Virus record (IMG/VR): IMGVR_UViG_3300028586_000750
Source of the DNA: a virus
Length of the DNA stretch: 64,000 nt
Strand: one strand, 5' to 3'
Position 1 is the first letter of the stretch. Every line of letters starts with the position of its first letter. The notes under the pieces were generated by a model. That model was not told the origin of the DNA. It searched no databases and saw only the letters and a list, made by a program, of their open reading frames with translations. Positions 49,221 through 64,000 of the stretch are shown here, one piece after another. The position numbers and the translations under genes were made by a program.

Positions 49221-49249
49221 AGTTTAACAGACCTTCATAGCAATGTCAA
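49221..49249 (-). promoter_or_regulatory. SigA-like promoter for the tRNA-Lys/ncRNA transcript
   Basis: TTGACA-N17-TAAACT. Confidence 0.75.
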
Positions 49250-49380
49250 ACTATTTTGTTAAATTTAAGTCCAGTTAGAGGCCAGTGTCATCATAATGAT
49301 GTAAAGAGCTTTCTAAGTACCAGGACTTAGTAGAGGCTACCTTTCCCCTATGGGGCACCTGCATTACTGGAACAGTCAAT

Positions 49381-49500
49381 AAAAGTAAGATGAATTAAAG
49401 ATTCGAACTTTCCAGCAGAGTGTACACTCCGTCCAAGCATCCACGGAATCGAACCGTGTTCCTAGCTACTGTGGCCTACGTTGTATCTTCACTTACTTTT
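49381..49500 (-). ncRNA. structured RNA with two T-loop hairpins
   Basis: Closing stem AAAAGTAAG.TGAA/TTCA.CTTACTTTT enclosing CACGG-TTCGATT-CCGTG and AAAG-TTCGAAT-CTTT. Confidence 0.5.
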
Positions 49501-49502
49501 CG

Positions 49503-49575
49503 CTGGGGTAACTGGACTCGAACCAGTAACCTTAAAGTTAACAGCTTTCTGCTCTGCCAATTGAGCTATACCCCA
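49503..49575 (-). tRNA. tRNA-Asn(GUU)
   Basis: Cloverleaf TGGGGTA/TACCCCA, loop CT-GTT-AA, G73. Confidence 0.95.
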
Positions 49576-49783
49576 ATGAAGGATAATCTAATGACATCTT
49601 AGGGCTGGTCCACGTCCTTATCGCTCGCCTGCCGGAATTACTGACTTTGCAGCATTGACCTTCGCCGTATTTGGCTCTGTCATTACTTCTCTCACCTAGG
49701 AAAGAAGGGTGTTGGCTCTATTGTTTTATAGTATTTCATTTAGGAAGACTTACCTATTTGTGTGCTTCCTTGCTTATGTATCT

Positions 49784-49813
49784 ACAATAGCACGCTTTCG
49801 TCAACCATGTCAA
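49784..49813 (-). promoter_or_regulatory. SigA-like promoter upstream of the ncRNA island
   Basis: TTGACA-N18-TATTGT. Confidence 0.65.
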
Positions 49814-49848
49814 CTCAAAAGCAAACTATTTTGAAAAAAGTTTTGAGC

Positions 49849-50202
49849 TTAATCTAGACGGTATGCAACAAGGGTTGCACGTGATGGATTGAACTGGGTA
49901 ACAAAACGCCACCCTGCGCAATCGCGTAGCCCAATACCAATAAGCGTATAATGCTCAGCATCCAACGAGTTAGAATCAGTTGTAAGCATTAGCTGAGGGC
50001 TACCCTTTTCAAACTCATCAAAAGGATGCTCAACAAAGACATAATTAATATTAGCCTCTACAGTGTCAATTTCCCAAACACGTAGGTTATTCTTTTTAGT
50101 AAGAAGCTTTACAGACTTAACCTTAATATCACCTTCATGCATTACTGCGGTTTTGCGATACACAGGTGTCACTTGTAGCCTTTTAACAAGGGGGTTGCGC
50201 AT
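49849..50202 (-). CDS. hypothetical protein
   Basis: GAGAG RBS. Confidence 0.7.
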   Translation of the reverse strand: MRNPLVKRLQVTPVYRKTAVMHEGDIKVKSVKLLTKKNNLRVWEIDTVEANINYVFVEHPFDEFEKGSPQLMLTTDSNSLDAEHYTLIGIGLRDCAGWRFVTQFNPSRATLVAYRLD

Positions 50203-50316
50203 TTTTATCTCTCAATTCTATTGAATAATATATGATTTAAGACTAACATAGTTGATGATATAGTTCAAGCCCCAACAAATATTATGTTGGGGCTTGAACT
50301 ATAGTTTTGTGCTGAT

Positions 50317-51318
50317 TTAACGTTTGAAGAAACCTGCGACAGTTTTTGCTAGACGAGCGGCAGGAGGCGTGTAACCTTCTGGTAGCTTATCTTCATTAAC
50401 AATTCTTGGTCTTCCGTTAGAAGGTGCTGGACTTGTGCTTTGTTCAGTTTTTACTTCTGATTTAGGTTCAGCGGTTTTAACGGTTTTCTTTCTACTCTTC
50501 TTGCTCTCGCCATAAGCTTCAAAAGTCCCTTCTTTATATCCATGAGCTTTATCAATTGCAGAACCGAAAGCTTTTAATCTCATGCTTTCTGCAAGCATTT
50601 CCTCTTGGTACATTCTTTGGCCTGGTCCACCTAACAAATATGAACGGTACAAAGATTGTCCTCGTTCATTGAAATTAAAACCATTATTTTTGCGTAGGGT
50701 TGTAATATGGGCATCTGCTTCTTGTGCAGTTAAAGCTCTCTTATGAGACAAGTCAACTACTTTTTTGAATTCTTCTTTTACAATTGTAGCTTTTCTTTGT
50801 ACTTCTGCTGAATATAAAGCTCTTTCTCCAACAAAACCATTATCAAAAGTAACATGTGTAGCTGTAACTTCTTTTTCTGCTGTAATAACAGGTTGACGTG
50901 CTTTTAACACACGAGGAGCATTTACTCTTTCTTCTTCTTTGCGCCAGTGCTCTTCAATTTGTCTGACCATCGCGCGGTCAGGGTAACCTAAACGTTCTTG
51001 ACGTTTGTCATAAGCAGCTTGACTTTTACGCTGTCTTGCTTGCACATTTTCAGGTAAATTATATACTCGATCTTCTTCTTCACGATGTTTAGCATAAGCA
51101 TCTTTCATTTCTTGTGGAAGAGCTTCAAAGTCTTCAACATCTTTTAATGTGATATCTTTTTTATTTGTCTTTCGGGCTGCATCATCATTTTTCCAGTCTT
51201 GGGTTAACGTAACTGTTATTGCCTCAACGTGTTTTCCACCGTTACGACATTCTTTTTTAGCAGGACAAGTAACCCATTGACCTTCTTTTGCACCAGATTT
51301 GGCAACATGCACGCTCAT
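50317..51318 (-). CDS. hypothetical protein with N-terminal Cys/His module
   Basis: HVAK...WVTCPAKKECRNGGKH; AAGGAG RBS. Confidence 0.78.
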   Translation of the reverse strand: MSVHVAKSGAKEGQWVTCPAKKECRNGGKHVEAITVTLTQDWKNDDAARKTNKKDITLKDVEDFEALPQEMKDAYAKHREEEDRVYNLPENVQARQRKSQAAYDKRQERLGYPDRAMVRQIEEHWRKEEERVNAPRVLKARQPVITAEKEVTATHVTFDNGFVGERALYSAEVQRKATIVKEEFKKVVDLSHKRALTAQEADAHITTLRKNNGFNFNERGQSLYRSYLLGGPGQRMYQEEMLAESMRLKAFGSAIDKAHGYKEGTFEAYGESKKSRKKTVKTAEPKSEVKTEQSTSPAPSNGRPRIVNEDKLPEGYTPPAARLAKTVAGFFKR

Positions 51319-51412
51319 ATTTTCTCCTTTAAAGCTGTATTACTTTATATATAACGGCGAAAGCCTTCCCTATAAATAGGGAAGGCTTTTCTTATGAGAG
51401 TTTTTTGTTGCG

Positions 51413-51895
51413 TTAGCGCTTCGGGGTGGCCTCATTGATGACCTTGTGCTGGTCGGTCGTGTAAATGACACGCTTGACACCGGCCTCTTCCAGAAGCTTC
51501 GTGCAGTTCTCGCAGGGGCGCGAGAAACGCGGTCGGCCCTGCTTGTCCACGCGAGCAACGTAGATGGTAGCGCCACGAGGGTCAGGAACGCGGCTCAGCG
51601 CGTCAGCCTCCGCGTGAGTGCTGATGTTGGGGTCGTACTCAGTGCTCTCGCTGACGGTCGTGTGACGGCTGCGGTAGCGGTTAATGCCCACCGAAAGGAC
51701 GCGGCCACCACGAACAACAACTGCACCGTGCTGACGGTTAACGTCGGAAGTCTCAGCAACCTTAGTGGCAAGGTCAAGGAAGGAACGCTGGCTGCGCGAA
51801 AGAGGGGTGTGGGGAAGCTCGAACGTACCAAGACGGTTCGCGTTTCCCTTGAACAGTCGGTTCCTCGGCGGGGCGCACATTTCCTGAAAAGACAT
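51413..51895 (-). CDS. cytidine/deoxycytidylate deaminase-like Zn enzyme
   Basis: HGAVVV, HAEADAL, SRPCENC; start uncertain. Confidence 0.88.
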   Translation of the reverse strand: MSFQEMCAPPRNRLFKGNANRLGTFELPHTPLSRSQRSFLDLATKVAETSDVNRQHGAVVVRGGRVLSVGINRYRSRHTTVSESTEYDPNISTHAEADALSRVPDPRGATIYVARVDKQGRPRFSRPCENCTKLLEEAGVKRVIYTTDQHKVINEATPKR

Positions 51896-52053
51896 TTCCG
51901 TGTAACTTTCTCTCATAAATTTAACGGTTGATACTCTTAGTGTAGCAAGCTGTACTGAGGAATGCAACTTCGCAAGCAAACTTTTGGAAAATATTTGAAA
52001 AAAAGTTTTGGCCTCTCAATCGGATATGACTGAGAGGCCAAAACTAAATGTGG

Positions 52054-52509
52054 TTATTTGATTTTTACAACACCAAGAGACATGTATTCGTTTGAGTGTC
52101 TAATGATTGCTTCCATATCTTCTGCATGGTAGATAAGACCGTTATTACCTAACCAAACAGGTGAATGCGTTTTAGTATGACCGACCACGTTGAACAGTTC
52201 TTTATCCACAACGATAACGCTTCCTTTAGTGAAGGAATAGTTCCATTTGGTGAAAGCTGAATAAAATGCGAAATCTGCAATCGATAGGTTCTTGTGTTTT
52301 TCACCTGCGATTGTAACAAAGTTAAATGTGCCACGTTTTAGGCTTTGGGAAAGGACATATCCGTAGTTAACGTTTTTGCCCGCAATGATTTTGACTTTGG
52401 AACGGTTGCGAATAACAGTATTAAGGTCATCAATTTGAGGAACTAACCCTGAATGGCACCCTGACATATCATTTAGAGTATAGGCATTAACTTTCATGGC
52501 AAAACTCAC
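52054..52509 (-). CDS. hypothetical protein
   Basis: Coupled to upstream gene. Confidence 0.65.
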   Translation of the reverse strand: MSFAMKVNAYTLNDMSGCHSGLVPQIDDLNTVIRNRSKVKIIAGKNVNYGYVLSQSLKRGTFNFVTIAGEKHKNLSIADFAFYSAFTKWNYSFTKGSVIVVDKELFNVVGHTKTHSPVWLGNNGLIYHAEDMEAIIRHSNEYMSLGVVKIK

Positions 52510-52913
52510 TTGTTGTGAATATCAAGCTTGGGAACAAGCTTTAGAAGGCCCTCTGGGATAAGGCTATTAGTCCACTCACCGTCAACAGGAGAAACAATAT
52601 AGGTATCCCCGGTCTGGTTCCATACAGCATAATCCGCTGTGTCAGCAAGAACGCGCACATGTGGACGATTAGGGTTGAAGTTGCTGAAAGTGGTTACAAC
52701 AAGCTTGCTACCAACAACACTAAGGTTCTCAGGGTTCACATGTGGGTAAGTTCCAATAATATCAGCTACATAGAAGTTAGTATCATGGTCACCCTTTAGC
52801 TTCTGGTGCCCTTCTTTGAATGATAGACAAAGAGCATCTAGCGTATCAGGTTCGTCATCAAGACGCACAACAGTAATACGGGGAAGTTCAGTTTCAATGT
52901 GGATGTAAGACAT
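52506..52913 (-). CDS. hypothetical protein
   Basis: AGGA RBS. Confidence 0.7.
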   Translation of the reverse strand: MSYIHIETELPRITVVRLDDEPDTLDALCLSFKEGHQKLKGDHDTNFYVADIIGTYPHVNPENLSVVGSKLVVTTFSNFNPNRPHVRVLADTADYAVWNQTGDTYIVSPVDGEWTNSLIPEGLLKLVPKLDIHNK

Positions 52914-52928
52914 TATTTTCCTAAATAG

Positions 52929-53162
52929 TTATTCGTCAACAATACCGAGTAAATCAGCTAGGGTTTCACGATTATCCGTGTCATCCCAACCCCAACAACG
53001 GCCTGAGTTAAGTAATGCAGCATTTTTTGGGTCTGAAAAAATTGTTTTAACTTTCTCAATATCTTCGTCTTGTAGAACAACAAAGAATTCTTGCTTGATG
53101 TCAAGCAGATCATCATCAGTTAACGTTTTGCGTCCTGGTCGGTTACGACGGCTTTCAGCCAT
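52929..53162 (-). CDS. hypothetical protein
   Basis: GGAG RBS. Confidence 0.7.
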   Translation of the reverse strand: MAESRRNRPGRKTLTDDDLLDIKQEFFVVLQDEDIEKVKTIFSDPKNAALLNSGRCWGWDDTDNRETLADLLGIVDE

Positions 53163-53493
53163 TTATTACTCCAATAATTAAGTTTGATGTGCAACCAGCT
53201 TACCAGTATTGAAAACATTTGTCAAGAACTGGTTAAACAAGTAATGCGTCAAATCATTGAGACTTGACGCATTACTTGTAATACCTTTAGGAAAGAATAG
53301 TTCCCAAAGTTTGTTTCTATCATAAGTAAGGATTCTAACTTTTCGGCTTCTCTGCTTGCGCTCCACCTATGTGAAAAGTTACAACTGACGTAGCACTATT
53401 CTTACTACTACTCGACATTTCCATGAGCATGCCAAGCTTCCAACATAATTCCGTTTCAAGCAGTGTATTAAGCTGCTATCCATTCGTCATGGG

Positions 53494-53576
53494 TACTCCA
53501 GGTGGGACTCGAACCCACACGTCCTTTCGGACAAAGCATTTTGAGTGCTTCGCGTCTGCCATTCCGCCACTAGAGC
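53494..53576 (-). tRNA. tRNA-Leu(CAA)
   Basis: Class II cloverleaf, AAGCA-CTCAAAA-TGCTT, variable arm GTCC-GAAA-GGAC. Confidence 0.95.
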
Positions 53577-53726
53577 ATATTTGGTAACTTGCGTTACCGT
53601 GTTGCTCTCTATACATATACTATAACACGTTTTTGGAAGGTATGCAACCTATTTACAATTTTTCTTCTAAAAAGACAAGTGGAGGGCAACTTAAATTAAG
53701 TTGCCCTCCACTTTAGTAGTCACTAA

Positions 53727-55265
53727 TTATTTCACGAATGAAACACCAGTTGTTGTTTTGTCATATTGAGGCCAGGTTGTACCATTTGATGGACCATAGA
53801 AGGAAGATTTTAATGTTCCGTTCTTTGTGTCAATTTCAAGTGTACGTACTGGGTTTGTGGTGTTTGAATGGAATGTTCCTAAGTAAGAAACAATTTTGTT
53901 ACCGTTCACACCAGTGTCTTCGCGGTATCCTGCTTCACCGACGTGACCAGAAACAACAATTTTGATGTTTGCGTACTGCTTAATCAAGTTGTCGTAAACG
54001 TATTGTGCAGAATTTGAACCATAGCTTGCTGATTGGTCAATTGTTGAGCCGCCATTCAAGTAAGAATGAGTTGATACAACAACATTGTAGTCAGGGTGTG
54101 AAGCTACAACTGTTTTAGCCCAGTCAACAACTTCTGTTCTTGGCCATAGTTCAAGATTTAGCATAAGCCATTTTTGGCCTGCTGCGTCAAAGGTTTGGTA
54201 AGCGTTATCAACTTTACCTGCTTCAAAGGTTGTAATACCTGGGTAACGGTTTACGTTGAAGTAAGTGTTGAATGTTGTTGTGTTGCGAACCAAAGTTCTT
54301 GTGTTCTTTGGGTCTGCTGCTCCACCACCGACACCTACTGCTGCTGTGTCATGGTTACCAATTGTTAATGCGTTAGGAATTTTGTTGTCATCTAGCACTC
54401 TCATAGCTTTTGATGCAACTTCGTATTGGTCATGAGTTGGGGTGTCCCAGTTCACAACGTCACCTGTGTGTTCTACGAAACGTAGGTCAAGGTTTTCTTT
54501 GTTGTTAACTAACCATTGTGTTCTGTTAATAAATCTGCTGTCTTTTCCAACTTCCTGTTGTGTGTCAGGGATGACTGCGATTGAGAACTTACCGTCAGCG
54601 TCTTGTGGGCTTAATGGCGCTGGGGTTGGTGTAACTGGTGGTGTAACCACTGGTGGGGTCACAGGAGGCGTTACAGGGGGTGTAACAGGTACTGTAGCTG
54701 CTGGCATTGCCCAGAAGATTGTTCCTTCTGCTGTCCAACCTGCTGCTTTAAGAGCATCTTTATCAGCTTGTGTTGTTGCGTAACGGTGCTTGCTTCCAAG
54801 AATGAAACGGTCTACAGGAATACCGCAATCAATCTTTTTAGGTGAAGCATAGAAGTTGATACCTTGGTCAACGTAATCATATTTTGTTTTGGCACTTTCG
54901 TATTCGTTTGAACCTGACCATTTTGGAATGTAAACAAAGTCACCTTTTTTAAACATGCGGTAAACAGGAACTAGTCCTTCTTTTTCTTTACCTGCTGCTT
55001 TGAACGACACACCTTTATCTACAGTAAAACCATTGTTAACTTTAGCTTTAGCAATCTCATTTGCATTAGATGTAAGCAACGATGCATTTGATGTTGGGTT
55101 AACTGATTGGTAGATATCTGTTGTCATTCCAGCACATACGGTGCTGGACGCGGGTGTGGTTGCTGCGTTTGCTGTTACCGCACCCATTGGTAAGAATGCC
55201 AATGTTAAAGCTACTGCGCCAAACTTTTTCCAATTTTTGGCAGAGTTCTTGTTTTGTTTTTTCAT
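53727..55265 (-). CDS. secreted calcineurin-like metallophosphoesterase with N-terminal DUF5648-like domain and PT linker
   Basis: Signal peptide (ANA); IPDTQ, HTGDVV, IGNHD, THSY, VSGH motifs; VPVYRM...GW.AEG..FW repeats. Confidence 0.87.
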   Translation of the reverse strand: MKKQNKNSAKNWKKFGAVALTLAFLPMGAVTANAATTPASSTVCAGMTTDIYQSVNPTSNASLLTSNANEIAKAKVNNGFTVDKGVSFKAAGKEKEGLVPVYRMFKKGDFVYIPKWSGSNEYESAKTKYDYVDQGINFYASPKKIDCGIPVDRFILGSKHRYATTQADKDALKAAGWTAEGTIFWAMPAATVPVTPPVTPPVTPPVVTPPVTPTPAPLSPQDADGKFSIAVIPDTQQEVGKDSRFINRTQWLVNNKENLDLRFVEHTGDVVNWDTPTHDQYEVASKAMRVLDDNKIPNALTIGNHDTAAVGVGGGAADPKNTRTLVRNTTTFNTYFNVNRYPGITTFEAGKVDNAYQTFDAAGQKWLMLNLELWPRTEVVDWAKTVVASHPDYNVVVSTHSYLNGGSTIDQSASYGSNSAQYVYDNLIKQYANIKIVVSGHVGEAGYREDTGVNGNKIVSYLGTFHSNTTNPVRTLEIDTKNGTLKSSFYGPSNGTTWPQYDKTTTGVSFVK

Positions 55266-55425
55266 TTAAACTTTTCTCCTCGTAAATGAACTACTACATA
55301 TATCTGTTGCTGTGAAGACTTTCAGGGGCTATCCAGAAAAATACTTTTATATTGTTTCTTCGACGCTTTCTGGATAGCCAAAAGGCCCCTACTAAATTTA
55401 GTAGGGGCCTTTTGGAGTAAATTAC

Positions 55426-55902
55426 TTAGAAATCTAGTCCAACAGCTAGATAGATAGTGAACCCACCTGAACGCCAGAACATGAAAGAACCAGTTCCTAC
55501 GCCTTCTGCCATATGAACCCATTCCCAACCATCAATGTCATCGTTGCTTGCATGACCACGGTAGTCGCCGTGCTGCTTGTGACGAAGGATGACAGGAACC
55601 CCGTAGTCTGCGGGAAGGTCAGCAGCAGACTTGACCTCAGCGCCAATGTTTTCGTCAGCTTCAAACGTAACAACATCACGGGTGGCGTCAACAAGCTCTA
55701 GAGTATCAACAAGGTGACCTTCTGGGGTGAGCAGAGGAACAAAGGTATCGCTTTCTCCCCCGTAGATATATCCAATACGCCCATCCTTCTCGGTGATGTC
55801 AGTTGTGGACTGTGCGAAGAGCGCAGGGAAACCGGCTACGGCAAAAATTGCTTTGTCGCCAGCTTTAAGTTCGGACGGGTTTGCGATGTGAATGATAGCC
55901 AT
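55426..55902 (-). CDS. hypothetical protein
   Basis: AAGGAG RBS. Confidence 0.75.
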   Translation of the reverse strand: MAIIHIANPSELKAGDKAIFAVAGFPALFAQSTTDITEKDGRIGYIYGGESDTFVPLLTPEGHLVDTLELVDATRDVVTFEADENIGAEVKSAADLPADYGVPVILRHKQHGDYRGHASNDDIDGWEWVHMAEGVGTGSFMFWRSGGFTIYLAVGLDF

Positions 55903-55928
55903 TAGTTGCTCCTTATTTAGGTAGTTTC

Positions 55929-55957
55929 ACTGTATCACAGTAAATACAGGTTAGCAA
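55929..55957 (-). promoter_or_regulatory. SigA-like promoter with TGTCTTTTC immediately upstream of -35
   Basis: TTGCTA-N17-TACAGT. Confidence 0.6.
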
Positions 55958-56009
55958 TGTGAAAAGACAAAGCGGGGTGCCTCATATTTAGAGGCACCCC
56001 GCTAGTAAG

Positions 56010-56186
56010 TTATTCGATTTCTACTTTAGTAGCTGGTTCTACGTGAAGGTCACCATGCTCTGTTTTAATTCGCACGTGACCGGGAATTGCTTTGGATGGC
56101 TCTGCATCTTCAATGGCACGGGAAAGATTTCCCTGTGAGCCAATGATGAAGTCTCCACCTTTTACCTCGTCGTATCTAACAATCAT
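56010..56186 (-). CDS. hypothetical protein (58 aa)
   Basis: Hand translation MIVRYDEVKGGDFIIG...KVEIE. Confidence 0.6.
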   Translation of the reverse strand: MIVRYDEVKGGDFIIGSQGNLSRAIEDAEPSKAIPGHVRIKTEHGDLHVEPATKVEIE

Positions 56187-56262
56187 AAGTTTTCTCTTCT
56201 CTCAGGTTAAATAAAAAACGCTACAGCCCTATACCGTAATGTGCATATAGGACTGTAGCGGT

Positions 56263-56402
56263 GTATAGCTTCTAATTCCTTCACAAGGAAACTATACGCA
56301 AAATTCTGCACCCTGTTGCCACAGGATAAGGAATGCAGTGAACAGCCTCAACTACGGCTCTTGCTGTTCTCGTCAAATCAGGGTGGCAACCCTGGCCGTA
56401 GA
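56263..56402 (-). ncRNA. predicted pseudoknotted RNA 3' of tRNA-Leu(UAA)
   Basis: CTACGGC/GCCGTAG crossed by GAACAGC/GCTGTTC, plus three further hairpins before the terminator. Confidence 0.45.
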
Positions 56403-56407
56403 TTTCG

Positions 56408-56489
56408 TAGCTCAGGTGGGACTCGAACCCACAATCCTTGCGGCACTTGATTTTAAGTCAAGCGTGTATGCCAATTCCACCACTAAGCC
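56408..56489 (-). tRNA. tRNA-Leu(UAA)
   Basis: Class II cloverleaf, CTTGA-CTTAAAA-TCAAG. Confidence 0.95.
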
Positions 56490-56624
56490 ATAGTGTGTGT
56501 TCCGCCTTACCTTTGTAAGACCTTACGGAAAGAAACACATTCCCGTTACCCAACATCATCACTTAATGTGTCCCTATGCTTTTATTTACATAAAAGAGGC
56601 AGATGAGCGGTCAGATAACCCTTG

Positions 56625-56699
56625 AGGGATCGACGAGATTCGAACTCGCGCCTTCAGTTTGGAAGACTGACATGCTATGACCGCTAACACTACGTTCCC
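56625..56699 (-). tRNA. tRNA-Gly(UCC)
   Basis: TCAGT-CTTCCAA-ACTGA, U73; one acceptor mismatch. Confidence 0.92.
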
Positions 56700-56706
56700 A
56701 TACCAT

Positions 56707-56772
56707 ACAGACAAACAGGAATTTAACCTGTGACCTTGCTCACCACACGCTCTAACACTGAGCTATTATCTG
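56707..56772 (-). ncRNA. tRNA-like RNA with truncated anticodon arm
   Basis: Acceptor CAGATAA/TTGTCTG, D stem GCTC/GAGC, T arm ACAGG/CCTGT; anticodon arm only 11 nt. Confidence 0.75.
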
Positions 56773-56874
56773 TACTATGCAACGGCGTTCAAATCCGTTC
56801 CTCTTCGCTTGCTTGCGAATTGTGCTATCTATACACTATACAAGTTTGTTATAATTCACTATGTAATTATTTTG

Positions 56875-56948
56875 TTGCGGGAGAGGGATTTGAACCCTCG
56901 ACCTCTAGATTATGAGCCTAGCGAGCTACCGAACTGCTCCACCCCGCT
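56875..56948 (-). tRNA. tRNA-Met(CAU), initiator-like
   Basis: GCGGGGTGGAGCAG...CTCATAA...; 1:72 mismatch, A11:U24; TTGACA-N18-TAGAAT promoter at 56962-56991. Confidence 0.92.
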
Positions 56949-57130
56949 TCGTTATGTTTCTATTCTAGCACACTTTATGTATTCATGTCAACTTATTTTG
57001 TCAACTTTATGTGCTTAAAGTTTTAGTGTGAGACTACCTCTTATTTCTCATTCTCACCCCAGCGCGTTATTAACTCACCTATCAAGTCTACCATCCTAAC
57101 CCCGAAAGGTTAGGACCGCTGGCCCTCGCG

Positions 57131-57199
57131 TTCCTTCACATAGAATTGAACTATGGACATTCCAAAAAGTTGGACGCTCTACCACTGAGCTATGAAGGA
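57131..57199 (-). ncRNA. tRNA-like RNA with 4-nt anticodon loop
   Basis: TCCTTCA/TGAAGGA acceptor, AGCTCAGTGGTAGAGC D arm, TCCAA-CTTT-TTGGA, CATAG-TTCAATT-CTATG. Confidence 0.8.
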
Positions 57200-57377
57200 C
57201 TTACTAATGATCTCAACTTAGTTAGGTTGAAAGAGCAGTTCCGTAGGATACATCACTCCTGCAAACAAGGTAGCTAACCTGTAAGTTGCAGTCAACTAAT
57301 AACTAAACCATTCAAAGGAATGTGCCGTTCCTTAATGGCTCTCCAACTATAATGGCACACAGTTGAAGCATGAATCG

Positions 57378-57460
57378 TTTCCCTGGCAGGACTCGAACCT
57401 ACACTACACCGGCTATAAATAACTATGCCTAGCTGCCTTGACCAATTTGGCTACAGGGAA
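57378..57460 (-). ncRNA. tRNA-like RNA with expanded (14-nt) anticodon loop
   Basis: TTCCCTG/CAGGGAA acceptor, GCC/GGC D stem, GCTA-N14-TAGC, GTAGG-TTCGAGT-CCTGC. Confidence 0.75.
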
Positions 57461-57811
57461 ATAATAAGATTAACGACAGGGTTTAATACCTGCATTTTAA
57501 GGCCGTAGCCACTTACACAATGTAAGATGTTTTACTTAAACTACGTCAACCTAAATCGCTATTGTTTTATCTAAACTATATCTGTTAAAAATAGTTTTTG
57601 TGGCTGTAGGTCCGTTGATGAACCTGTCTCCATTTTTTGGAATAAACTTTCACGTTCAAACCAGAAAAGTTGTTTTCGTAAACTAACAGCCTTCCACCGA
57701 GATTTTGTGCTATTGTCCTCGGTTAATCCGCTCAGTGCAGCAATGGAGCTACCATATCTTTGCACTATTTATCTTGCGGTTTATCTTGATATTTCTTTAT
57801 AAGATACTTCT

Positions 57812-57840
57812 ATACTATCACACGATTTTAAGTAAATCAA
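57812..57840 (-). promoter_or_regulatory. SigA-like promoter with TGTCTTTTC immediately upstream of -35
   Basis: TTGATT-N17-TAGTAT. Confidence 0.6.
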
Positions 57841-57867
57841 TGTGAAAAGACATTTTCTTCAAAATAT

Positions 57868-58065
57868 CTTTGCCCCCACCACAGGACTTGAACCTGTAAA
57901 AGAGGCGCTAAATCGCGGCCTCTTGTTTTGCCAGCTAAACTAGACGGGGATAAGAACTAATTGGTCTTTCACTTATTCTGAAAGCATATTTAGTTCTAAG
58001 TTGGTAACTCACTCGTTACCCTTTCAATACTTTAACTCTACACCATGCTACTGACAAAAGTCAAA
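57868..58065 (-). repeat. copy A of ~195-bp duplicated promoter-leader-tRNA-like unit
   Basis: Near-identical to 58484-58676. Confidence 0.95.
57873..57949 (-). ncRNA. tRNA-like RNA with 13-nt anticodon loop
   Basis: CCCCGTC/GGTGGGG, GTTT/AAAC, AGAGG-CCGCGATTTAGCG-CCTCT, ACAGG-TTCAAGT-CCTGT. Confidence 0.8.
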
Positions 58066-58402
58066 CTAGAACAAAGTTTGCTTTAAGAATTTCTAGAGCC
58101 TGCTTAGTATAGTTAAGATTTGACTTGATGCGAAGGTTAGTCTGGAAAGCAAAAAGCATTTCGTTAGAAGAAACTAGGGCCTCTTCCATACTCACACCTT
58201 CTGGGGTCATAGCAGAAAGCTGTTCCCACTGCTCAAAACGCAGTACCTCTAGCTGAATGATTTGCTCCTGAACAGCCTCTACAAGCTCAAGAACATCCTC
58301 AGTCTGAGAACCGGAAGCCTGAATTGCAACTGCCTTATCCTTAACCCTGCTGATGAAAGTATCAGTGTTTAGCTGGTTCAGCTTTGCTACTACGTTGGTC
58401 AT
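58061..58402 (-). CDS. coiled-coil protein, paralog of 58672-59001
   Basis: MTNVVAKLNQL / MTNVATRLEYL; shared QEQIIQLEVL..EQWE.L.AM.P. Confidence 0.8.
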   Translation of the reverse strand: MTNVVAKLNQLNTDTFISRVKDKAVAIQASGSQTEDVLELVEAVQEQIIQLEVLRFEQWEQLSAMTPEGVSMEEALVSSNEMLFAFQTNLRIKSNLNYTKQALEILKANFVLV

Positions 58403-58483
58403 ATGCTTAGTCTTTCTCTCGATGAAACCGTTTAATTAACACATGCTCAATTTATGAACATCACATAAGACACTATTTTGTGT

Positions 58484-58676
58484 CTTTGCTCCCACCACAG
58501 GACTTGAACCTGTAAAAGAGACTACGCGGCCTCTTGTTTTGCCAGCTAAACTAGACGGGAATAAGAACTAATTGGTCTTTCACTTATTCTGAAAGCATAT
58601 TTAGTTCTAGGTTAGCAACTCACTCGTCACCCTTTCAATACTTTAACTCTACACCACGCCACTGACAAAAGTCAAA
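58484..58676 (-). repeat. copy B of ~195-bp duplicated unit
   Basis: Near-identical to 57868-58065. Confidence 0.95.
58489..58560 (-). ncRNA. tRNA-like RNA with 8-nt anticodon loop
   Basis: TCCCGTC/GGTGGGA, AGAGG-CCGCGTAG-TCTCT, ACAGG-TTCAAGT-CCTGT. Confidence 0.8.
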
Positions 58677-59001
58677 TACCAAACTTAGTTTTTAGTTTAT
58701 TCATAATTTCTTGGTTAATATCAATATAAGCTTGGATTTGCATGTAACGCTGAGTGGGTAGCAAAAGCTCTAGCGAACCCATTGACCCATCTTCAACTGC
58801 GGGAGCCATGGCTTGAAGCTCTTCCCACTGGTCTAGAAGAAGTATCTCTAGTTGAATAATTTCTTCCTGCAACTGCATAACAATTGCAGAATACGCCTCA
58901 GGCCCTTTATTTGCGCTAGAAATCTCCACAAGAACGCTAGAGAGATTATTCATCACAAAATTATTAGATAGGTATTCAAGCCTTGTTGCTACATTAGTCA
59001 T
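58672..59001 (-). CDS. coiled-coil protein, paralog of 58061-58402
   Basis: Shared QEEIIQLEIL..DQWEEL.AM.P segment. Confidence 0.8.
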   Translation of the reverse strand: MTNVATRLEYLSNNFVMNNLSSVLVEISSANKGPEAYSAIVMQLQEEIIQLEILLLDQWEELQAMAPAVEDGSMGSLELLLPTQRYMQIQAYIDINQEIMNKLKTKFGI

Positions 59002-59022
59002 AGTTTTCTTTCTTTATTTCGG

Positions 59023-59556
59023 TTACTTGCTTAGGACAAGGGGTGTGTTGGTTTCGTTACGACGCTGAGCCTTAGCATCCTGGCGCTGTACCTTAACAAG
59101 GTCAATCGCAGCGTCAATGGATGTATCATCCTTAAGATGGTTTAGAGCATGACCGTTACCAAGCTTAAGCTTGGACTGCTCGGCAAGGAACGAACGAAGA
59201 GCATTCCCGTACTTGTGAGTGAAAGTAAACTCATCAGGTAACACGTAAGGCTGCATCTTCTCTGCAAGGAAGTTACGACGCTCAGCATCATTCTCGAGAG
59301 CGTTAAAAGTTACAGTGTCGCTCTTAATGGTCGCAAGGATGTGGTCGAACATGGAGCCGTGCTCTTTCCATCGAGCACGCTCAACAGCGGCACGCTCAGC
59401 CTTGTAAGCATACTCTGCCGCAGTAATCTTACGAGCCTTGTCTTGCTTGTAATCGTAAATAATATCCTTAATAACCATTTCCCAAATAAACCAACAAATG
59501 AGAGCTACATAGATAACGGGAAGCAGTAGCACTAGAAGAATAATAGGATTAAACAT
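59023..59556 (-). CDS. membrane-anchored hypothetical protein
   Basis: N-terminal TM then coiled coil. Confidence 0.75.
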   Translation of the reverse strand: MFNPIILLVLLLPVIYVALICWFIWEMVIKDIIYDYKQDKARKITAAEYAYKAERAAVERARWKEHGSMFDHILATIKSDTVTFNALENDAERRNFLAEKMQPYVLPDEFTFTHKYGNALRSFLAEQSKLKLGNGHALNHLKDDTSIDAAIDLVKVQRQDAKAQRRNETNTPLVLSK

Positions 59557-59695
59557 AATTTTGACGGTACTTTCTCATAAAGTGTTCGTGGTTAAGCGGT
59601 ATAAAGTAATCGTAGCACGACATTTCCAGTAGCGCAACCAAGTGTAGATACAGCTTTTGTTTGCCTGATTACATATTTTCTGTTATAAATAAAAC

Positions 59696-60397
59696 ATGTC
59701 ATCTTTTCCCCAAAACTGCAAAGCGAAAGACCCTCTTAAATGCCGTCATCATTCACCTTTCAAAAATTCTTTACCACAAGCAGAGAAAACTGTTAAGACT
59801 AAGAAAGCACCTGAACTTGTTGTGTCTCGTGGCGTAAAAGTTATCAAAGGTAAATTCCAATCCGGAGACTTTGCCAAAGGTTTCAATACACCTGACAGCA
59901 TTAATGGTTATTACGACGGTTCATGGGAAGAAGTTGAAAAACTTGTTAAGAAGCACCGTAAAGACTTTGAACCTGGTACAGGTAGCGTTGATAACGACGT
60001 AATCCTTGTAAACGTACCCGCTAAAGGCTTCTATACAGCCATCACAGCGATTGACGATGACAATAAGCATCTTGTAGAAGAGAAAGATTATGTCCGCCGT
60101 GAAGGCGAAAAATCAGTTGGTATCAAAACAATTAAAGGAAAGAAAGAACCAGCTAAGTTTGTAAAAGTTGTTTGTTATCGTGCAGATGTTTTAGCACAAG
60201 ATGATGGTCGTACAACTGATGCTGAATGGGAGATTGTAGCAATTAATGCTCAATCTGATGAGTACACACCTATGCACCCAACTACAATGTTACGTAATGC
60301 TAATCATGATGAAGGTGGAACGTTAAGAGAATACTCAGATAAAGATTGGTCTGACGCTTATTCTTACTGGGACACGCATGCTTACCTTGAAGATTAA
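59696..60397 (+). CDS. hypothetical protein with N-terminal Cys/His module
   Basis: CKAKDPLKCRHH; TATAAATA just upstream of ATG. Confidence 0.78.
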   Translation: MSSFPQNCKAKDPLKCRHHSPFKNSLPQAEKTVKTKKAPELVVSRGVKVIKGKFQSGDFAKGFNTPDSINGYYDGSWEEVEKLVKKHRKDFEPGTGSVDNDVILVNVPAKGFYTAITAIDDDNKHLVEEKDYVRREGEKSVGIKTIKGKKEPAKFVKVVCYRADVLAQDDGRTTDAEWEIVAINAQSDEYTPMHPTTMLRNANHDEGGTLREYSDKDWSDAYSYWDTHAYLED

Positions 60398-60406
60398 CTA
60401 GACATA

Positions 60407-60450
60407 ACTAAGTAATGCCCCACCAAATATTTGGTGGGGCATTACTTAGT
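60407..60450. repeat. palindrome family member, 20-bp stem
   Basis: actaagtaatgccccaccaa atat ttggtggggcattacttagt. Confidence 0.85.
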
Positions 60451-60826
60451 TTGCAACCTGCGTATCAGTTGTCGTGTACTCTTCCATTTTTTGAGTAAGA
60501 CGAGAAAGTTCAGGTCCACTGTGAAAACTGTAAGCCTGGAAAATCCTGTCTAGGTACTCTTTATGCTTACTATCAAGTTTACTAGTGTCACCTACAGGCC
60601 ATGTAGTTAGAATATATGCGCCTTTGTGATAAGACATAAGTTCCGTATAGCGTGGACCTGTTTTGGTATGTGTGAAATATTCAGAGAATAGTGGCACATA
60701 AAGTGCACGCTGATAAAGAGTGTCAGCTAGGAAACAAAGTTTATGCAACTTCATTGAAGACATACCCTGGTCATTACGCTTATGCGAAATGAAATACTGA
60801 GCTACATCTTGGATTGATAACGTCAT
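60446..60826 (-). CDS. Panacea-domain (DUF4065/SocA-like) antitoxin
   Basis: DVAQYFI...MSSMKLHKLCFLA..LY...LF.E.F....GP; ELSRLT. Confidence 0.82.
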   Translation of the reverse strand: MTLSIQDVAQYFISHKRNDQGMSSMKLHKLCFLADTLYQRALYVPLFSEYFTHTKTGPRYTELMSYHKGAYILTTWPVGDTSKLDSKHKEYLDRIFQAYSFHSGPELSRLTQKMEEYTTTDTQVAN

Positions 60827-60952
60827 TATCTGCTTTCTTTATTGACAAAATTATTTATGTATCAATTAAACCATTTTTGATAAAAGTTGTCAAGCTCAGT
60901 TTATTCCAAAACTAAAGGGACTGTCTACTTTAGGTAGACAATCCCTTTTAGC

Positions 60953-61114
60953 TTAATAACTTAATTGAACCGTGTTACTATCTGGTGCAATTTCTACAAC
61001 TTCAATATCATACCAAGCCACTGGATCATCTTGGTAATCATCATAAGTGTAATATGTTACAGGTAAATCTTTTGGTAACTTTTGTAGCTTTTCAATCAAT
61101 TCATTTACAGTCAT
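60953..61114 (-). CDS. small hypothetical protein (53 aa)
   Basis: Hand translation MTVNELIEKLQKLPKDLPV...; same opening pattern as 62294-62446. Confidence 0.65.
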   Translation of the reverse strand: MTVNELIEKLQKLPKDLPVTYYTYDDYQDDPVAWYDIEVVEIAPDSNTVQLSY

Positions 61115-61240
61115 TTCTTTTCCTTATCTTGTTATAGTTTAATCTAACTCAATACTAGATAAAGTAAAGTTGATGCAAATAAGGTGGTAGATACTTTTTC
61201 AAATATCTACCACCTTACTAAACATAATCTGGGATTATGT

Positions 61241-61636
61241 TCAATCTTTCTTCTCGGTTACAAATACTTCGTATCCCCAACCGTAGTAGCCGTTGTCACT
61301 ACCAGAGCTACGAACAATTTCTGTTTTGATTCCTTCGGCATAAACAAACATGCGAAGCGTTGCTTCGTCAGGTCCGCTTGTGTTGAACTCGTCAACAACT
61401 TCTACGTTCGTGATGACCTGTGTAGGTGCATCGTTAGGTGCGTCAACTGACCAGTATCCGTTTGAACAACCGCCACATCCGTAAGACTCTGTTGCCTTAA
61501 GAATAGTACCGTTGTCAAGTACAAACTCAATTGAGTCTGTGTGGTATGGTGCTTTGATTTTGCGTGTTTCTACAATACGTCGTCCAACCATAATCTTGCG
61601 AAGACGGTCAGTGTCGTTGTATGTAATTTCATTCAT
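61241..61636 (-). CDS. hypothetical actinophage-type protein
   Basis: YGCGGCSNG...DNGYYGWGY; AGGAG RBS. Confidence 0.75.
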   Translation of the reverse strand: MNEITYNDTDRLRKIMVGRRIVETRKIKAPYHTDSIEFVLDNGTILKATESYGCGGCSNGYWSVDAPNDAPTQVITNVEVVDEFNTSGPDEATLRMFVYAEGIKTEIVRSSGSDNGYYGWGYEVFVTEKKD

Positions 61637-61890
61637 GTTTTTCTCCTAATTGGTTTTGTGTTTTCTATATCCAAAATAGTTTTTACACAGTTCCAAAATA
61701 AGGAGGTTACTGAATTATTTAATTTTAAAGTTTGTTATGGATGCCGAAATCCGTTCCATACCCAGACCCGCTAGTTCTGTTTCTGGTTTAGCCTGCGCAG
61801 CCACTCAACACCAGCAGAGCTTTTACTTTTCACTGGAATTCATCCGAGAGGCGTAAAAGAACCTTTAACATAATTTTGTTAATGCCGCAG

Positions 61891-61972
61891 TGCTCCCGGT
61901 GGGACTTGAACCCACACTTCTTGCGAAACTTGATTTTAAGTCAAGCGTGTCTGCCAATTCCACCACAAGAGC
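61891..61972 (-). tRNA. tRNA-Leu(UAA), second copy
   Basis: Class II cloverleaf, CTTGA-CTTAAAA-TCAAG. Confidence 0.95.
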
Positions 61973-62104
61973 ATATGGTACCGTTAGCTTCGCGCATGCA
62001 TTCGCTTAGCTGAAAAAGGGAAGTGAGCCACGGTTCCGTACCGCTCACCGACTGTAGTAGTCCCGTAGGACACTACCCAGCAATTATAGTCATTTTCATG
62101 ACCG

Positions 62105-62178
62105 TGGACCTGATGGGACTCGAACCCACAACATTCTGCGTGCAAGGCAGACGCTCTACCAATTGGAGCTACAAGCCC
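62105..62178 (-). tRNA. tRNA-Ala(UGC)
   Basis: TCTGC-CTTGCAC-GCAGA, G3:U70 identity pair. Confidence 0.96.
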
Positions 62179-62293
62179 GTATTATCTCTATTTAATTAGA
62201 TGAGGTTGGTCCGAAACTTGTTCTCCCGGCATCCCCTCGTTCTTTAATTATTCTAGCACATAATATCTGCATATACCAACTATTTTGTTACTT

Positions 62294-62446
62294 TTAGTCA
62301 GATAAATGAATTGAGTCGCGCATAGTTGTTTGAACATCAGCAACGCTAACCCACTGCGAAGGCCCCTCATCGTTTAACATAGGGACATAGACATCTGCGT
62401 TTTCTGGTAGCTCTTGAAGCTGTGCAATTAAATCTTTTACTCGCAT
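62294..62446 (-). CDS. small hypothetical protein (50 aa)
   Basis: Hand translation MRVKDLIAQLQELPENADV...; AAGGA RBS. Confidence 0.65.
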   Translation of the reverse strand: MRVKDLIAQLQELPENADVYVPMLNDEGPSQWVSVADVQTTMRDSIHLSD

Positions 62447-62491
62447 TATTTATCCTTTTCTTTAGTATAACGGATTTAAATTTTTATTATC

Positions 62492-62962
62492 TTATTTATT
62501 TTTCCACGGCTTACCATTAGTTTGTTGGCTATGGCAATTTGGGCATAAAAATCTTAGATTGGGCGCACGATTATCATAGTTGCGCCCATTTATATGGTCA
62601 ATTTCAAGTACAATAGGTTTACCATTATATTCTGAACCAATGCCGCAACCCTCACAGATATGCAATCTTCCAATATCCAGTAGTGCTCGGCGCAAATGAA
62701 CAGTTTTAGTTTTCCATTTATTAGCCTCTTCGAGGACCAAAATATCTTCAGGTGCTAACCGTTTTGCAGCTTGTTTGCCCTTCATGTGACCTTGACCTGT
62801 AAAGTGCGAGATATCAATACCAGCATTTATAATACGTCGTTTGATATGACTTTGGCTACCACCAGCGAGTGGTATCCCAAGTTCTCTTAAAACAGCCGCA
62901 ATACTAAAACTATCTGCAACAGCTTTAGCAAGAGTTTCTGTAGTGTACTTGTATTTGGTCAC
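62492..62962 (-). CDS. HNH endonuclease
   Basis: CEGC...LEIDHINGRNYDNRAPNLRFLCPNCH; GTG start, leaderless. Confidence 0.93.
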   Translation of the reverse strand: MTKYKYTTETLAKAVADSFSIAAVLRELGIPLAGGSQSHIKRRIINAGIDISHFTGQGHMKGKQAAKRLAPEDILVLEEANKWKTKTVHLRRALLDIGRLHICEGCGIGSEYNGKPIVLEIDHINGRNYDNRAPNLRFLCPNCHSQQTNGKPWKNK

Positions 62963-62986
62963 AGTCTAATTTTACCATAACATTAG

Positions 62987-63057
62987 GAACAGTAGTGGGA
63001 CTCGAACCCACATGCACCGCTAAAGTGCGGCGTAGTTTACCATTAGCTTATACTGTC
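62987..63057 (-). ncRNA. tRNA-like RNA with 8-nt (or 6-nt) anticodon loop
   Basis: GACAGTA/TACTGTT acceptor, CGCCG-CACTTTAG-CGGTG, GTGGG-TTCGAGT-CCCAC. Confidence 0.75.
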
Positions 63058-63311
63058 GAGAACCAATTTCTTGGACCCCTTTTTCAGTTGAGGCAGGTTT
63101 TCGAAGCCCTGCATACCGCTCTCACGCGCATTATCCCATTTTATGCTATCTCAACAGCACCATTGCTTCTATCCGCTGCCCGTCCTGTCTCAGGTACCTT
63201 GATTGAGGACTTCTTGCTTCTTTTCACTTTAGGTGTTTTGTTAATGAAGGGTGTACATTTCCTTCATTAATAAAACTATACTACTTTAAATCTACCTTGT
63301 CAAGTTCATTT

Positions 63312-63830
63312 TCAAACTTTATTTGAAGATTTTGCTGCTTCCCAGCCAGCTTTTGCGGCAACGGAACGAGGGTCAGTTAAAGCCTCAATTTGTTTCGCCA
63401 AAGCATTACCCAAAGCTTCCAATGGCTTTACGATTTCGGACCAAGGAGCGGCAACATGAATGTCTCGTGTAAGGATGCGTCCTGAATGACCGTCACCCCA
63501 AATGATAACAGGGGCAACCAAAGCGCCATTGATACCAAAGCTCAAATCATGAGTGTAACGGAAATCAAAAAGGTCTTCGTCATCATCAGTCATACGCTCT
63601 TTTAGAAGCTCTTCGTCAGTGAACGAGGTAATGTTAGCAGAGGAAAGATAAGCCCAGTTCTCATTCAACCATTCAAGCACTTCTACTAAAGTCCAGTCAA
63701 AGTCCCAAATTGTTTTTCCTGCAACACGAATGACAAGGTTTCCCCATGTACAGTTAGCTGCTGAGTCAGCAACAGACTGGTCTTTATCAAATGACAACGA
63801 CCAGTCAAATAAACCTTCATTGGTTGACAT
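63312..63830 (-). CDS. hypothetical acidic protein
   Basis: AGGAG RBS before MSTNEG. Confidence 0.75.
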   Translation of the reverse strand: MSTNEGLFDWSLSFDKDQSVADSAANCTWGNLVIRVAGKTIWDFDWTLVEVLEWLNENWAYLSSANITSFTDEELLKERMTDDDEDLFDFRYTHDLSFGINGALVAPVIIWGDGHSGRILTRDIHVAAPWSEIVKPLEALGNALAKQIEALTDPRSVAAKAGWEAAKSSNKV

Positions 63831-63918
63831 ATAGTTTACTCCTAAGTAGATAATTCTATGGGTTAAAAAGTTTAGGCTTATGATGAACACTTTTTACATG
63901 TTCATCATAAGCCTATGT

Positions 63919-64000
63919 TGGCACTTTAGGTGGGATTTGAACCCACATGTCCTTTCGGACAAGGCACCTTTGAAAGCGCCTCTCGTCTGCATTCCGCCAC
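63919..64000 (-). ncRNA. Leu-type tRNA-like RNA with 10-nt anticodon loop (5' end outside window)
   Basis: GTGGCGGAATG.CAGACG D arm, AGGCG-CTTTCAAAGG-TGCCT, same GTCC-GAAA-GGAC variable arm as tRNA-Leu(CAA), encoded CCA. Confidence 0.75.

Follow-up and report, generated by a model that had tools for sequence, protein, structure and literature searches.

What are tRNA-shaped phage genes for when they have no anticodon to offer, and are they still genes at all? The transfer RNA (tRNA) genes of phages are currently explained by codon supply or by the replacement of host tRNAs destroyed by defence nucleases. The question is raised by a 64,000-nucleotide (nt) stretch of viral DNA, IMG/VR record IMGVR_UViG_3300028586_000750, hereafter the window, in which seven tRNA-like elements, named t1 to t7, lie between positions 56707 and 64000, all on the minus strand. 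The original prediction, made from the sequence, held that these are non-decoding tRNA mimics kept by selection. Our analysis supports this central claim through the conservation of the tRNA-like bodies, the anticodon arms of orthologs and compensatory base pairs. Selection on structure is observed within the phage population and across two phage lineages, and the seven as a set are very probably selected non-decoding RNAs. The best overall explanation, to which we give about an even chance, is that they are working, selectively kept, tRNA-derived non-coding RNAs, neither decoders nor decaying pseudogenes. At least three of them, t4, t5 and t6, each make up the 3' module of a dedicated transcription unit, which consists of a promoter, a conserved structured leader and the tRNA-like part, followed by a hairpin in the case of t4 and t5.

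The seven elements are recognizable as tRNAs by a general model. The Rfam tRNA model RF00005, whose gathering threshold is 29 bits, matches all of them where they had been predicted, with scores of 44.7 (t1), 59.2 (t2), 43.1 (t3), 39.0 (t4), 37.2 (t5) and 35.5 bits (t6), and of 32.4 bits for t7 at its full length, which was taken from L001 (L001:9825-9909), a sister assembly of the same phage that covers DNA past the window end. The expectation that ARAGORN would return them as cloverleaves with no defined anticodon was borne out in the window for t5 and t6 only, which it calls 'tRNA-???'. A descriptor search for a T arm combined with a fully paired acceptor stem of 7 base pairs (bp) gave 24 matches in the window versus 1-5 in shuffled copies. 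The acceptor stems are complete, as had been claimed, with 49 of 49 standard pairs (six of them G-U); those of t7 are included once the element is completed (7/7 Watson-Crick). The T stems are likewise intact (35/35). The D arm, also described as intact, is so for 24 of 26 stem pairs, t6 and t7 having one D-stem mismatch each and t7 lacking one of G18/G19. The T arm is not canonical in every case, since the T loop reads TTCRANT in six elements and TTAAATT in t1. Finally, identity searches with two window proteins led to the same locus in at least six other samples, and in all of these assemblies every element has the length and indel state that it has in the window. The elements are therefore not assembly artefacts, and the assembly indels that had been considered as a trivial origin of the odd loops are excluded.

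It is the anticodon region that departs from the rule. The standard anticodon arm, in which a stem of 5 bp bears a 7-nt loop that has U33 and, at position 37, a purine, is found in none of the seven, and the claim that none has a 7-nt loop holds without exception. In place of this arrangement, the loop measures 4, 6 or 8 nt, or the arm is an 11-nt stub or has an extended helix. Minimum-free-energy (MFE) folds show a closed arm with a loop of 4-6 nt in six elements and only the 11-nt stub in t1, and neither the closed hairpin nor the stub form is able to present an anticodon. The change is thus located where the original prediction had placed it, but rather than damage it is better called replacement by a closed hairpin in six of the seven, and by a stub in t1.

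The forms of this replacement differ among the elements. In t1 (56707-56772), the anticodon arm is cut to 11 nt within a body that has all its acceptor (7/7), D-stem (4/4) and T-stem (5/5) pairs; the element lies 7 nt upstream of tRNA-Gly within a Met-t1-Gly-Leu operon. Where tRNAs universally form the elbow pair G19-C56, it has U19 in the D loop and A56 in the T loop, so that this tertiary contact appears to have changed in a compensatory manner. The near-perfect tRNA body of t2 (57131-57199) has a 5-bp anticodon stem closed by the 4-nt loop CTTT. Its 21 stem pairs are all Watson-Crick, its MFE fold is the cloverleaf (z = -2.6) and its sequence is identical in all strains. The body of t3 (57378-57460) is class II-like, with a 3-bp D stem, an 11-nt D loop and a total length that is right for a class II tRNA. 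What had been read as its 14-nt loop belongs to a region in which the anticodon stem is unpaired and which instead folds as a hairpin of 7 bp closed by a 4-nt loop. Similarly, the supposed 13-nt loop of t4 (57873-57949) is a 3-bp helix extension with a 6-nt loop, so that the extended arm comprises 5 bp, a bulged C, 3 bp and the 6-nt loop. Its paralog t5 (58489-58560) is 93% identical to it, with differences that fall mostly in the anticodon arm, here shortened to a stem of 5-7 bp and a loop of 6-8 nt (7 bp and 6 nt in the MFE fold), and with a compensatory change of the 1:72 pair in addition. The element t6 (62987-63057) has a 3-nt variable region and an anticodon stem of 6 bp with a 6-nt loop, which is also its MFE arm and can alternatively be read as 5 bp and 8 nt. 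Lastly, t7 (63919-64000), whose 5' end lies 6 nt past the window end, has a class II body derived from tRNA-Leu(CAA), a discriminator G and an encoded CCA. Its loop, TTTCAAAG, has 8 nt on a 5-bp stem and not 10 nt as first read, and in the MFE fold the arm closes into 8-9 bp with a 4-nt loop. It is identical to tRNA-Leu(CAA) at 53494-53576 at 69 of 85 positions, and its acceptor stem has changed compensatorily.

Could these elements simply be redundant duplicates, stripped of the anticodon loop and about to disappear from a fast-duplicating tRNA island? The island does duplicate tRNAs freely. It holds three identical copies of tRNA-Leu(TAA) (window 61890-61972; L001:4171-4253; L001:4739-4821) and a tRNA-Leu(CAA) that equals them except for the first anticodon base, and duplication followed by anticodon switching seems to be a source of new isoacceptors there. 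The lesions of t7 outside the anticodon arm, and the homing endonuclease gene of the HNH type that adjoins t6, also fit a picture of decay. Variation within the population speaks against it. Between the window and strain L007, which are 1.5% apart (212 differences in 14,293 aligned nt), intergenic DNA differs at 75 of 4174 sites (1.8%), coding DNA at 132 of 9129 (1.45%) and normal tRNAs at 2 of 470 (0.43%). The tRNA-like bodies differ at none of 454 sites (0%), and their odd anticodon regions at 3 of 66 (4.5%). At the intergenic rate, the probability of finding no change in the bodies is 3e-4, and bodies and loops differ from each other with P = 0.002 (Fisher). The three single-nucleotide polymorphisms (SNPs) of the odd regions are structurally harmless: in the t3 hairpin a G-U pair becomes G-C, and the other two affect the first loop base of t4 and the stub of t1. 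As a set, the elements do not show the substitution at the neutral rate in all arms, together with uncompensated stem mismatches, that would mark pseudogenes, and no acceptor or T stem has an uncompensated mismatch. The compensatory change of the t7 acceptor after its duplication from tRNA-Leu(CAA) likewise argues against decay. The elements are thus being kept, as had been proposed, with changes falling in the odd loops.

A deeper comparison was provided by a second megaphage lineage, which we reached through a DUF3228 protein encoded within the island and which has a tRNA island of its own (L015; also L021, on contigs of about 785 kb). The two lineages are well separated, as homologs of the neighbouring 109-aa and 177-aa proteins are 36% and 25% identical, and the DUF3228 protein 68%. 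L015 contains three aberrant elements that score with RF00005, at 5611-5682, 9856-9931 and 18610-18692, two of which are positional orthologs of window elements because they sit behind homologous leaders. Upstream of the t6 ortholog (L015:5611-5682) lies a 177-nt leader sharing 72% identity with that of t6, and the leader ahead of the t4/t5 ortholog (L015:9856-9931) shares 73% with those of t4 and t5. The t6 pair is 63% identical, with 97.7% of stem cells paired, and 8 of 22 pairs have changed on both sides (three in the acceptor stem, three in the T stem, one each in the D and anticodon stems). Both members have the same arm of 6 bp and 6 nt and the same 3-nt variable region, whereas their loops differ (ACTTTA versus AATTGT; in the 8-nt reading, CACTTTAG in t6 versus CAATTGTG in the ortholog). 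In the t4/t5 family, 3 of 24 pairs are compensatory, two of them in the anticodon helix, and the arm extension of t4, bulge and 3 bp, is present in the L015 ortholog with the loop GTTACTT there versus GATTTA. Among strains of the second lineage, which are 4.3-4.7% apart, the two orthologs show 0 differences in 148 positions, and normal tRNAs 1-2 in 706.

The comparison of orthologs and covariation that had been proposed as a check therefore came out in favour of the selected RNAs: arms without a 7-nt loop are kept, the acceptor, T and anticodon stems are compensated, and loop sequences vary. It spoke in part against the idea that the same lesion arose repeatedly. As t4 and t5 are paralogs of one unit, and as the architectures of t4/t5 and t6 are older than the split of the lineages, these are inherited designs and not recurrent recent lesions. 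With an odd arm kept and compensated in orthologs whose neighbouring proteins are only 25-36% identical, and with no change in 148 positions at 4.5% divergence, the pseudogene reading is largely refuted for t4, t5 and t6. For the set, we regard it as improbable.

The original prediction had overlooked that t4, t5 and t6 stand at the 3' ends of longer conserved non-coding units with promoters and leaders. The unit of t6, which we call unit A, comprises a promoter-like site (TTGACA-17-TATAGT, 63275-63303, minus strand, as are all features of these units; 11/12 consensus), the structured 177-nt leader (63059-63235) and t6. The leader is predicted to form a three-way junction with a T-arm-like hairpin (63093-63112); to call this junction 'tRNA-like' is only our reading of the structure predicted by RNAalifold. 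It is 72% identical to L015:5433-5609 (nhmmer E = 1e-55), with the same score in all strains of each lineage, and 16 of the 59 predicted pairs of the whole unit are compensatory, about half of them in the leader. A comparison of this leader with Rfam returned no family at E <= 10, not even a weak tRNA match. The HNH endonuclease gene (window 62492-62962, minus strand) lies 24 nt after t6; at its position, the second lineage has a tRNA-Leu(CAA), 7 nt downstream of the t6 ortholog, and the gene looks like the insertion of a homing endonuclease into the tRNA island.

There are two copies of unit B, which combines a promoter-like site, a leader some 77 nt long, the tRNA-like module (t4 or t5) and a hairpin. 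Two small open reading frames (ORFs), paralogs of each other, adjoin them, and each copy begins at the stop codon of its ORF. In the t4 copy, the promoter-like site TTGACT-18-TAGAGT (58035-58064), whose TTGAC box is kept in the L015 ortholog, precedes a leader (57951-58027) with a hairpin and a long-range helix that encloses a second hairpin. This leader is 73% identical to L015:9782-9854 (nhmmer E = 1e-18), with compensatory pairs according to RNAalifold. Directly 3' of t4, an 11-bp inverted repeat (57846-57871) forms a hairpin that is a possible terminator or 3' processing stop. The t5 copy has the same promoter-like site (58646-58675), a leader (58562-58638; nhmmer E = 1e-22) that is 95% identical to that of t4, and a 7-bp inverted repeat directly 3' of t5 (58467-58486). 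The small ORFs beside t4 and t5 are 31% identical, compared with 93-95% for the RNA units, which fits strong constraint or gene conversion acting on the RNA. Outside these units, a promoter-like site (TTGACA-18-TAGAAT with TG, 56962-56991, minus strand; 11/12 consensus) lies ahead of tRNA-Met, t1, tRNA-Gly and tRNA-Leu, and t7, placed after tRNA-Leu(AAG), is directly followed by a strong terminator hairpin (18 bp and a T run, 63873-63915, minus strand).

How might such RNAs work? The parts that are kept, namely the acceptor stem with its 7 bp, the T arm and the elbow-forming D arm, are those that the maturation and tRNA-binding machinery reads, and the recognition elements for RNase P and the 3' tRNA-processing enzyme (acceptor, T arm, elbow) are present in the elements. 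Because these are the parts read by RNase P, 3'-end processing and the CCA-adding enzyme, the RNAs are likely to be cut out and stabilized as tRNAs are, by RNase P cleavage, 3' trimming and CCA addition. The closed arm would retain the L-shape while removing the anticodon and the 7-nt loop used by anticodon nucleases and loop-modifying enzymes, which should make it a poor substrate for enzymes acting on that loop. The most likely single use, though on its own still a somewhat doubtful one, would be as L-shaped competitors that occupy readers of the elbow or acceptor end, such as tRNA-directed defence nucleases or toxins of the host. The decoy idea of the original prediction is plausible because many defence nucleases cut the anticodon arm (PMC10264068, PMC11464382, PMC12445682, PMC13056530) and because RNA-repair genes are nearby. 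In its most elaborate form, it would imply a megaphage family of 'anticodon-capped' tRNA decoys, matured by the host, uncuttable in the loop and soaking up defence nucleases or acceptor-end toxins; we deem this unlikely, though worth stating.

Alternatively, the tRNA-like modules might be handles for processing or stability, recruiting RNase P, RNase Z and CCA addition, with the leaders or the neighbouring tRNAs or mRNAs as the actual product. The anticodon would then be superfluous and closed off against miscoding, in parallel with tRNA punctuation, with small RNAs linked to tRNAs and with the transcripts of murid herpesvirus 68 that join tRNA-like RNAs to microRNAs. Such an arrangement is consistent with the interleaving of the RNAs with small ORFs, with loop sequences that vary freely and with the position of t1 and of the L015 t6 ortholog, each 7 nt upstream of a tRNA (tRNA-Gly and tRNA-Leu, respectively), as in dimeric tRNA precursors. 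However, RNase P needs only the acceptor/T-arm helix and the elbow, which leaves the compensation in the anticodon helix and the extended helix of t4 unexplained. In unit B, only 2 nt separate the end of the leader helix from the acceptor stem, a spacing unfavourable to RNase P. Trans targets of the leader motifs were not found in the window, where a search for complementarity to leader or loop motifs gave chance-level matches only. On the whole we think a handle function rather unlikely; a use as competitors and a use as handles nevertheless fit the data about equally well.

Several points weigh against the explanation that we favour, namely working non-coding RNAs kept by selection. In both units A and B, the leader is as strongly conserved, by sequence and by structure, as the tRNA-like part, as a handle function would have it. 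The covariation comes from two lineages only and, for t6, from two distinct sequences only. Moreover, any two true tRNAs look 'compensatory' when aligned, so that the argument depends mainly on what the lineages share, the leader and the odd arm; that leaders and odd arm should both be shared without common descent under constraint is hard to explain. For four elements, t1, t2, t3 and t7, the second lineage has no ortholog, and each of them could be a young pseudogene. They are open to that reading one by one because the SNP test reaches significance for all seven together and for no single element. The defence-related matches of the context also fall below the Pfam cut-offs: a 126-aa protein of the island (window 60446-60826, minus strand) matches the Panacea antitoxin domain at 24.5 bits for a Pfam cut-off of 25.7, a 259-aa protein (window 29148-29927, minus strand) matches HD_4, a RelA/SpoT hydrolase-type domain, just under its cut-off, and PADLOC found no match in ten neighbouring proteins. 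Both domains are linked to toxins that hit tRNA acceptor ends.

Some of the RNAs might instead be charged without decoding. Synthetases that ignore the anticodon (LeuRS, AlaRS) would charge some of them, and the amino acid would be donated or sequestered, or the synthetase or EF-Tu titrated. Recognition by bacterial LeuRS is independent of the anticodon, t7 and L015:18610-18692 have tRNA-Leu class II bodies, and the L015 element keeps A73. The phage also has unusually many tRNA-Leu genes and a tyrosyl-tRNA synthetase (TyrRS), and a neighbouring 123-nt element described below carries the alanine determinants G3:U70 and A73. Nevertheless, t7 has G73 instead of the A73 needed by LeuRS, in addition to its D-stem mismatch and its missing G18 or G19. 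The discriminator differs between the t6 orthologs (C versus A), the bodies of t4 and t5 are similar to those of the Gln or Asn type, for which charging depends on the anticodon, and no aminoacyl-transferase gene was seen in the window. A charged-carrier role is possible for Leu-type members, with the G73 of t7 arguing against it for t7 itself; as an account of the elements, it has little probability.

Still less probable is that the members with an 8-nt loop, t5, t6 and t7, are unusual decoders that read four-base codons or promote +1 frameshifting, as had also been suggested. The +1 frameshift-suppressor and quadruplet-decoding tRNAs sufD, SufB2, sufJ and the engineered quadruplet tRNAs (qtRNAs) share 8-nt loops with these three, whereas four of the seven elements have no such loop, and no cognate shift site was found in the window. 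ARAGORN proposes the four-base anticodons CTTT for t6 and TCAA for t7. The loop of t7, UU-UCAA-AG, has U33 and A37 rightly placed, and only t7 has this formal layout. In t6, position 33 is A and not U, and its ortholog has a different loop (CAATTGTG), so that no quadruplet is conserved. In addition, the loops can close to 4-6 nt in MFE folds, and t1, t2, t3 and t4 would be left unexplained. Among the genes of the 64-kb window, one pair shows a long +1 overlap, without an in-frame AAAG, TTGA or TATG. With the 8-nt loop unconserved, U33 missing from t6 and no +1-shifted gene with a matching quadruplet in the window, the frameshifting idea is not sustained. Intron-containing tRNAs were considered as well and rejected, as the intron readings of ARAGORN are arbitrary and at non-canonical positions (t4, for example, becomes a 'tRNA-Stop (tta)' with a 4-nt intron), and no splicing route for such inserts is known in bacteria or phages.

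Do the elements belong to a known class? Known tRNA mimics include YrlA, mascRNA, the tRNA-like RNAs of herpesviruses and the tRNA-like domain of transfer-messenger RNA (tmRNA). mascRNA (RF01684) and the tRNA-like RNAs of murid herpesvirus 68 are non-decoding RNAs matured by tRNA enzymes. Like t1-t7, they keep the acceptor, T arm and elbow, and those of the herpesvirus are joined to small RNAs. They come, however, from eukaryotes or their viruses, with Pol III or RNase Z biology, and have no sequence relation to our elements; in 48000-64000, the mascRNA model gave only a sub-threshold match, on a normal tRNA-Leu. YrlA is a bacterial and phage Y RNA, a tRNA mimic found near RNA-repair genes (Chen et al. 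2014, PMC4201824). It is permuted, its ends form the Ro-binding stem and it travels with Rsr/Ro60, whereas the ends of t1-t7 form a normal acceptor stem. The Y RNA models had no Rfam match at E <= 10 in 48000-64000, and no TROVE domain was found among the window ORFs scanned. ROOL and GOLLD, the ornate RNAs of phage tRNA islands (Kretsch et al. 2024 preprint, 10.1101/2024.12.08.627333), are also conserved structured RNAs that adjoin tRNAs in phages and are sometimes covalently linked to them. In contrast, they are about 600-800 nt long, form multimeric cages and are not tRNA-shaped, and neither has an Rfam match in the window. The identities YrlA, tmRNA, ROOL and GOLLD were thus rejected, with no model matches and a different topology.

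Also close to the elements are canonical elongator tRNAs, among them the phage tRNAs that evade anticodon nucleases by substitutions in the anticodon loop (van den Berg et al. 2023, PMC10264068; Burman et al. 2024, PMC11464382). Canonical and escape tRNAs share with our elements the cloverleaf, the 7-bp acceptor stem, the T arm, the D-arm elbow, the location in a phage tRNA island and, for the latter, a change in the anticodon arm. The published escape tRNAs have a 7-nt loop and still decode, whereas t1-t7 have a loop of 4-6 nt, an 11-nt stub or an extended helix, and no anticodon. In the open-access literature searched, we found no description of phage tRNA look-alikes with a closed anticodon arm that are conserved across lineages and organized in units of leader and tRNA-like part.

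Past the window end, the island holds more non-canonical members. About 870 nt beyond it, the 123-nt element L001:8842-8964 has an acceptor stem and a T arm only; next to G3:U70 and A73, it shows a weak tmRNA match (19.6 bits), and ARAGORN makes no tmRNA call. The 93-nt tRNA-like L001:6089-6181 (33.9 bits) has an anticodon 'loop' of about 30 nt that holds a hairpin; removal of 23 nt would give CTGAAAC, a Phe(GAA)-type loop, and mismatches affect the first two pairs of its acceptor stem. The tRNA model misses further elements, with bodies of 56-147 nt, in which the T arm is canonical and all 7 bp of the acceptor stem are formed; they are found at L001:5209-5305 and L001:9257-9351 and, in the second lineage, at L015:3908-3996, 4006-4061, 4080-4226 and 14963-15084. 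Among L015 strains, their differences are interior and not in the acceptor or T arms. Similar elements occur in DNA assigned to bacteria. An 830-kb contig binned in a metagenome-assembled genome (MAG) of Pyrinomonadaceae (L092, G001:C1:346000-365999) has an island of about 25 tRNAs and three aberrant tRNA-likes, one t4-like with an aberrant middle region and two neighbours of it; this contig looks like a mis-binned megaphage or a giant prophage. On the chromosome of a Desulfosarcina MAG, a lone tRNA-like (L089:2206-2284) shares the GTTT/AAAC D stem of t4, while its anticodon arm is closed over about 16 bp; it has no tRNA gene within 8 kb and may be a bacterial relative of the capped-arm design.

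The source of the window is a very large uncultured phage, and its genes recur on metagenome contigs of up to 350 kb, as judged by protein identity. The related lineage is represented by two independent assemblies of about 785 kb, which would rank among the largest phage genomes. It has two tRNAs of the amber-suppressor type (anticodon CTA; L015:10718-10789 and L078:11244-11315), a hint of TAG recoding in that lineage. For the locus itself (56300-64000), close and distant BLAST searches among 50,697 phage records gave generic tRNA matches only and no relative, protein scans and DNA-pattern scans of IMG/VR returned no relatives, and GTDB genomes scanned with the unit A leader motif gave no match.

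Besides TyrRS, the window encodes two HAD_SAK_2 domains, an RNase T-like exonuclease, a deaminase and the HNH endonuclease; the HAD domains are of the kind that occurs in RNA-repair proteins. The surroundings of the tRNA-like genes are thereby rich in RNA-repair and tRNA genes (two HAD_SAK_2, RNase T and TyrRS, with HD_4 and Panacea below cut-off). Eight normal tRNAs, all on the minus strand, are called by ARAGORN in the window. The part of the island that could be read contains 12 normal tRNAs, of which seven are for Leu. The deaminase-fold protein (cytidine/dCMP; window 51413-51979, minus strand) lies in the same island as tRNA-Leu(AAG) (L001:9537-9621), which has A34, and the two may form a private A-to-I wobble-editing pair. 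The DUF3228 protein (window 59696-60397, plus strand) is found within the tRNA islands of both lineages and, in contig L014, beside CysRS. Its AlphaFold model (predicted local distance difference test, pLDDT, 82) resembles only uncharacterized apicomplexan proteins (2pd0, 4fbd), with no functional hint.

Our study suggests that the tRNA content of huge phages is not of one kind. In the readable 26 kb of the island (the window from 48 kb and 10 kb beyond), about half of the tRNA-shaped genes are non-decoding. tRNA finders skip such genes or label them 'undetermined', so that tRNA counts of huge phages mix two kinds of genes. The elements are concrete short RNAs of 66-88 nt that can be synthesized and assayed. 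Non-decoding tRNA-likes conserved as tightly as real tRNAs, and dedicated RNA units common to distant megaphage lineages, indicate that phages put the tRNA fold to a second use, one that does not involve decoding. If the decoy idea were true, they would add an RNA-based layer of anti-defence beside the replacement tRNAs and RNA-repair enzymes of phages.

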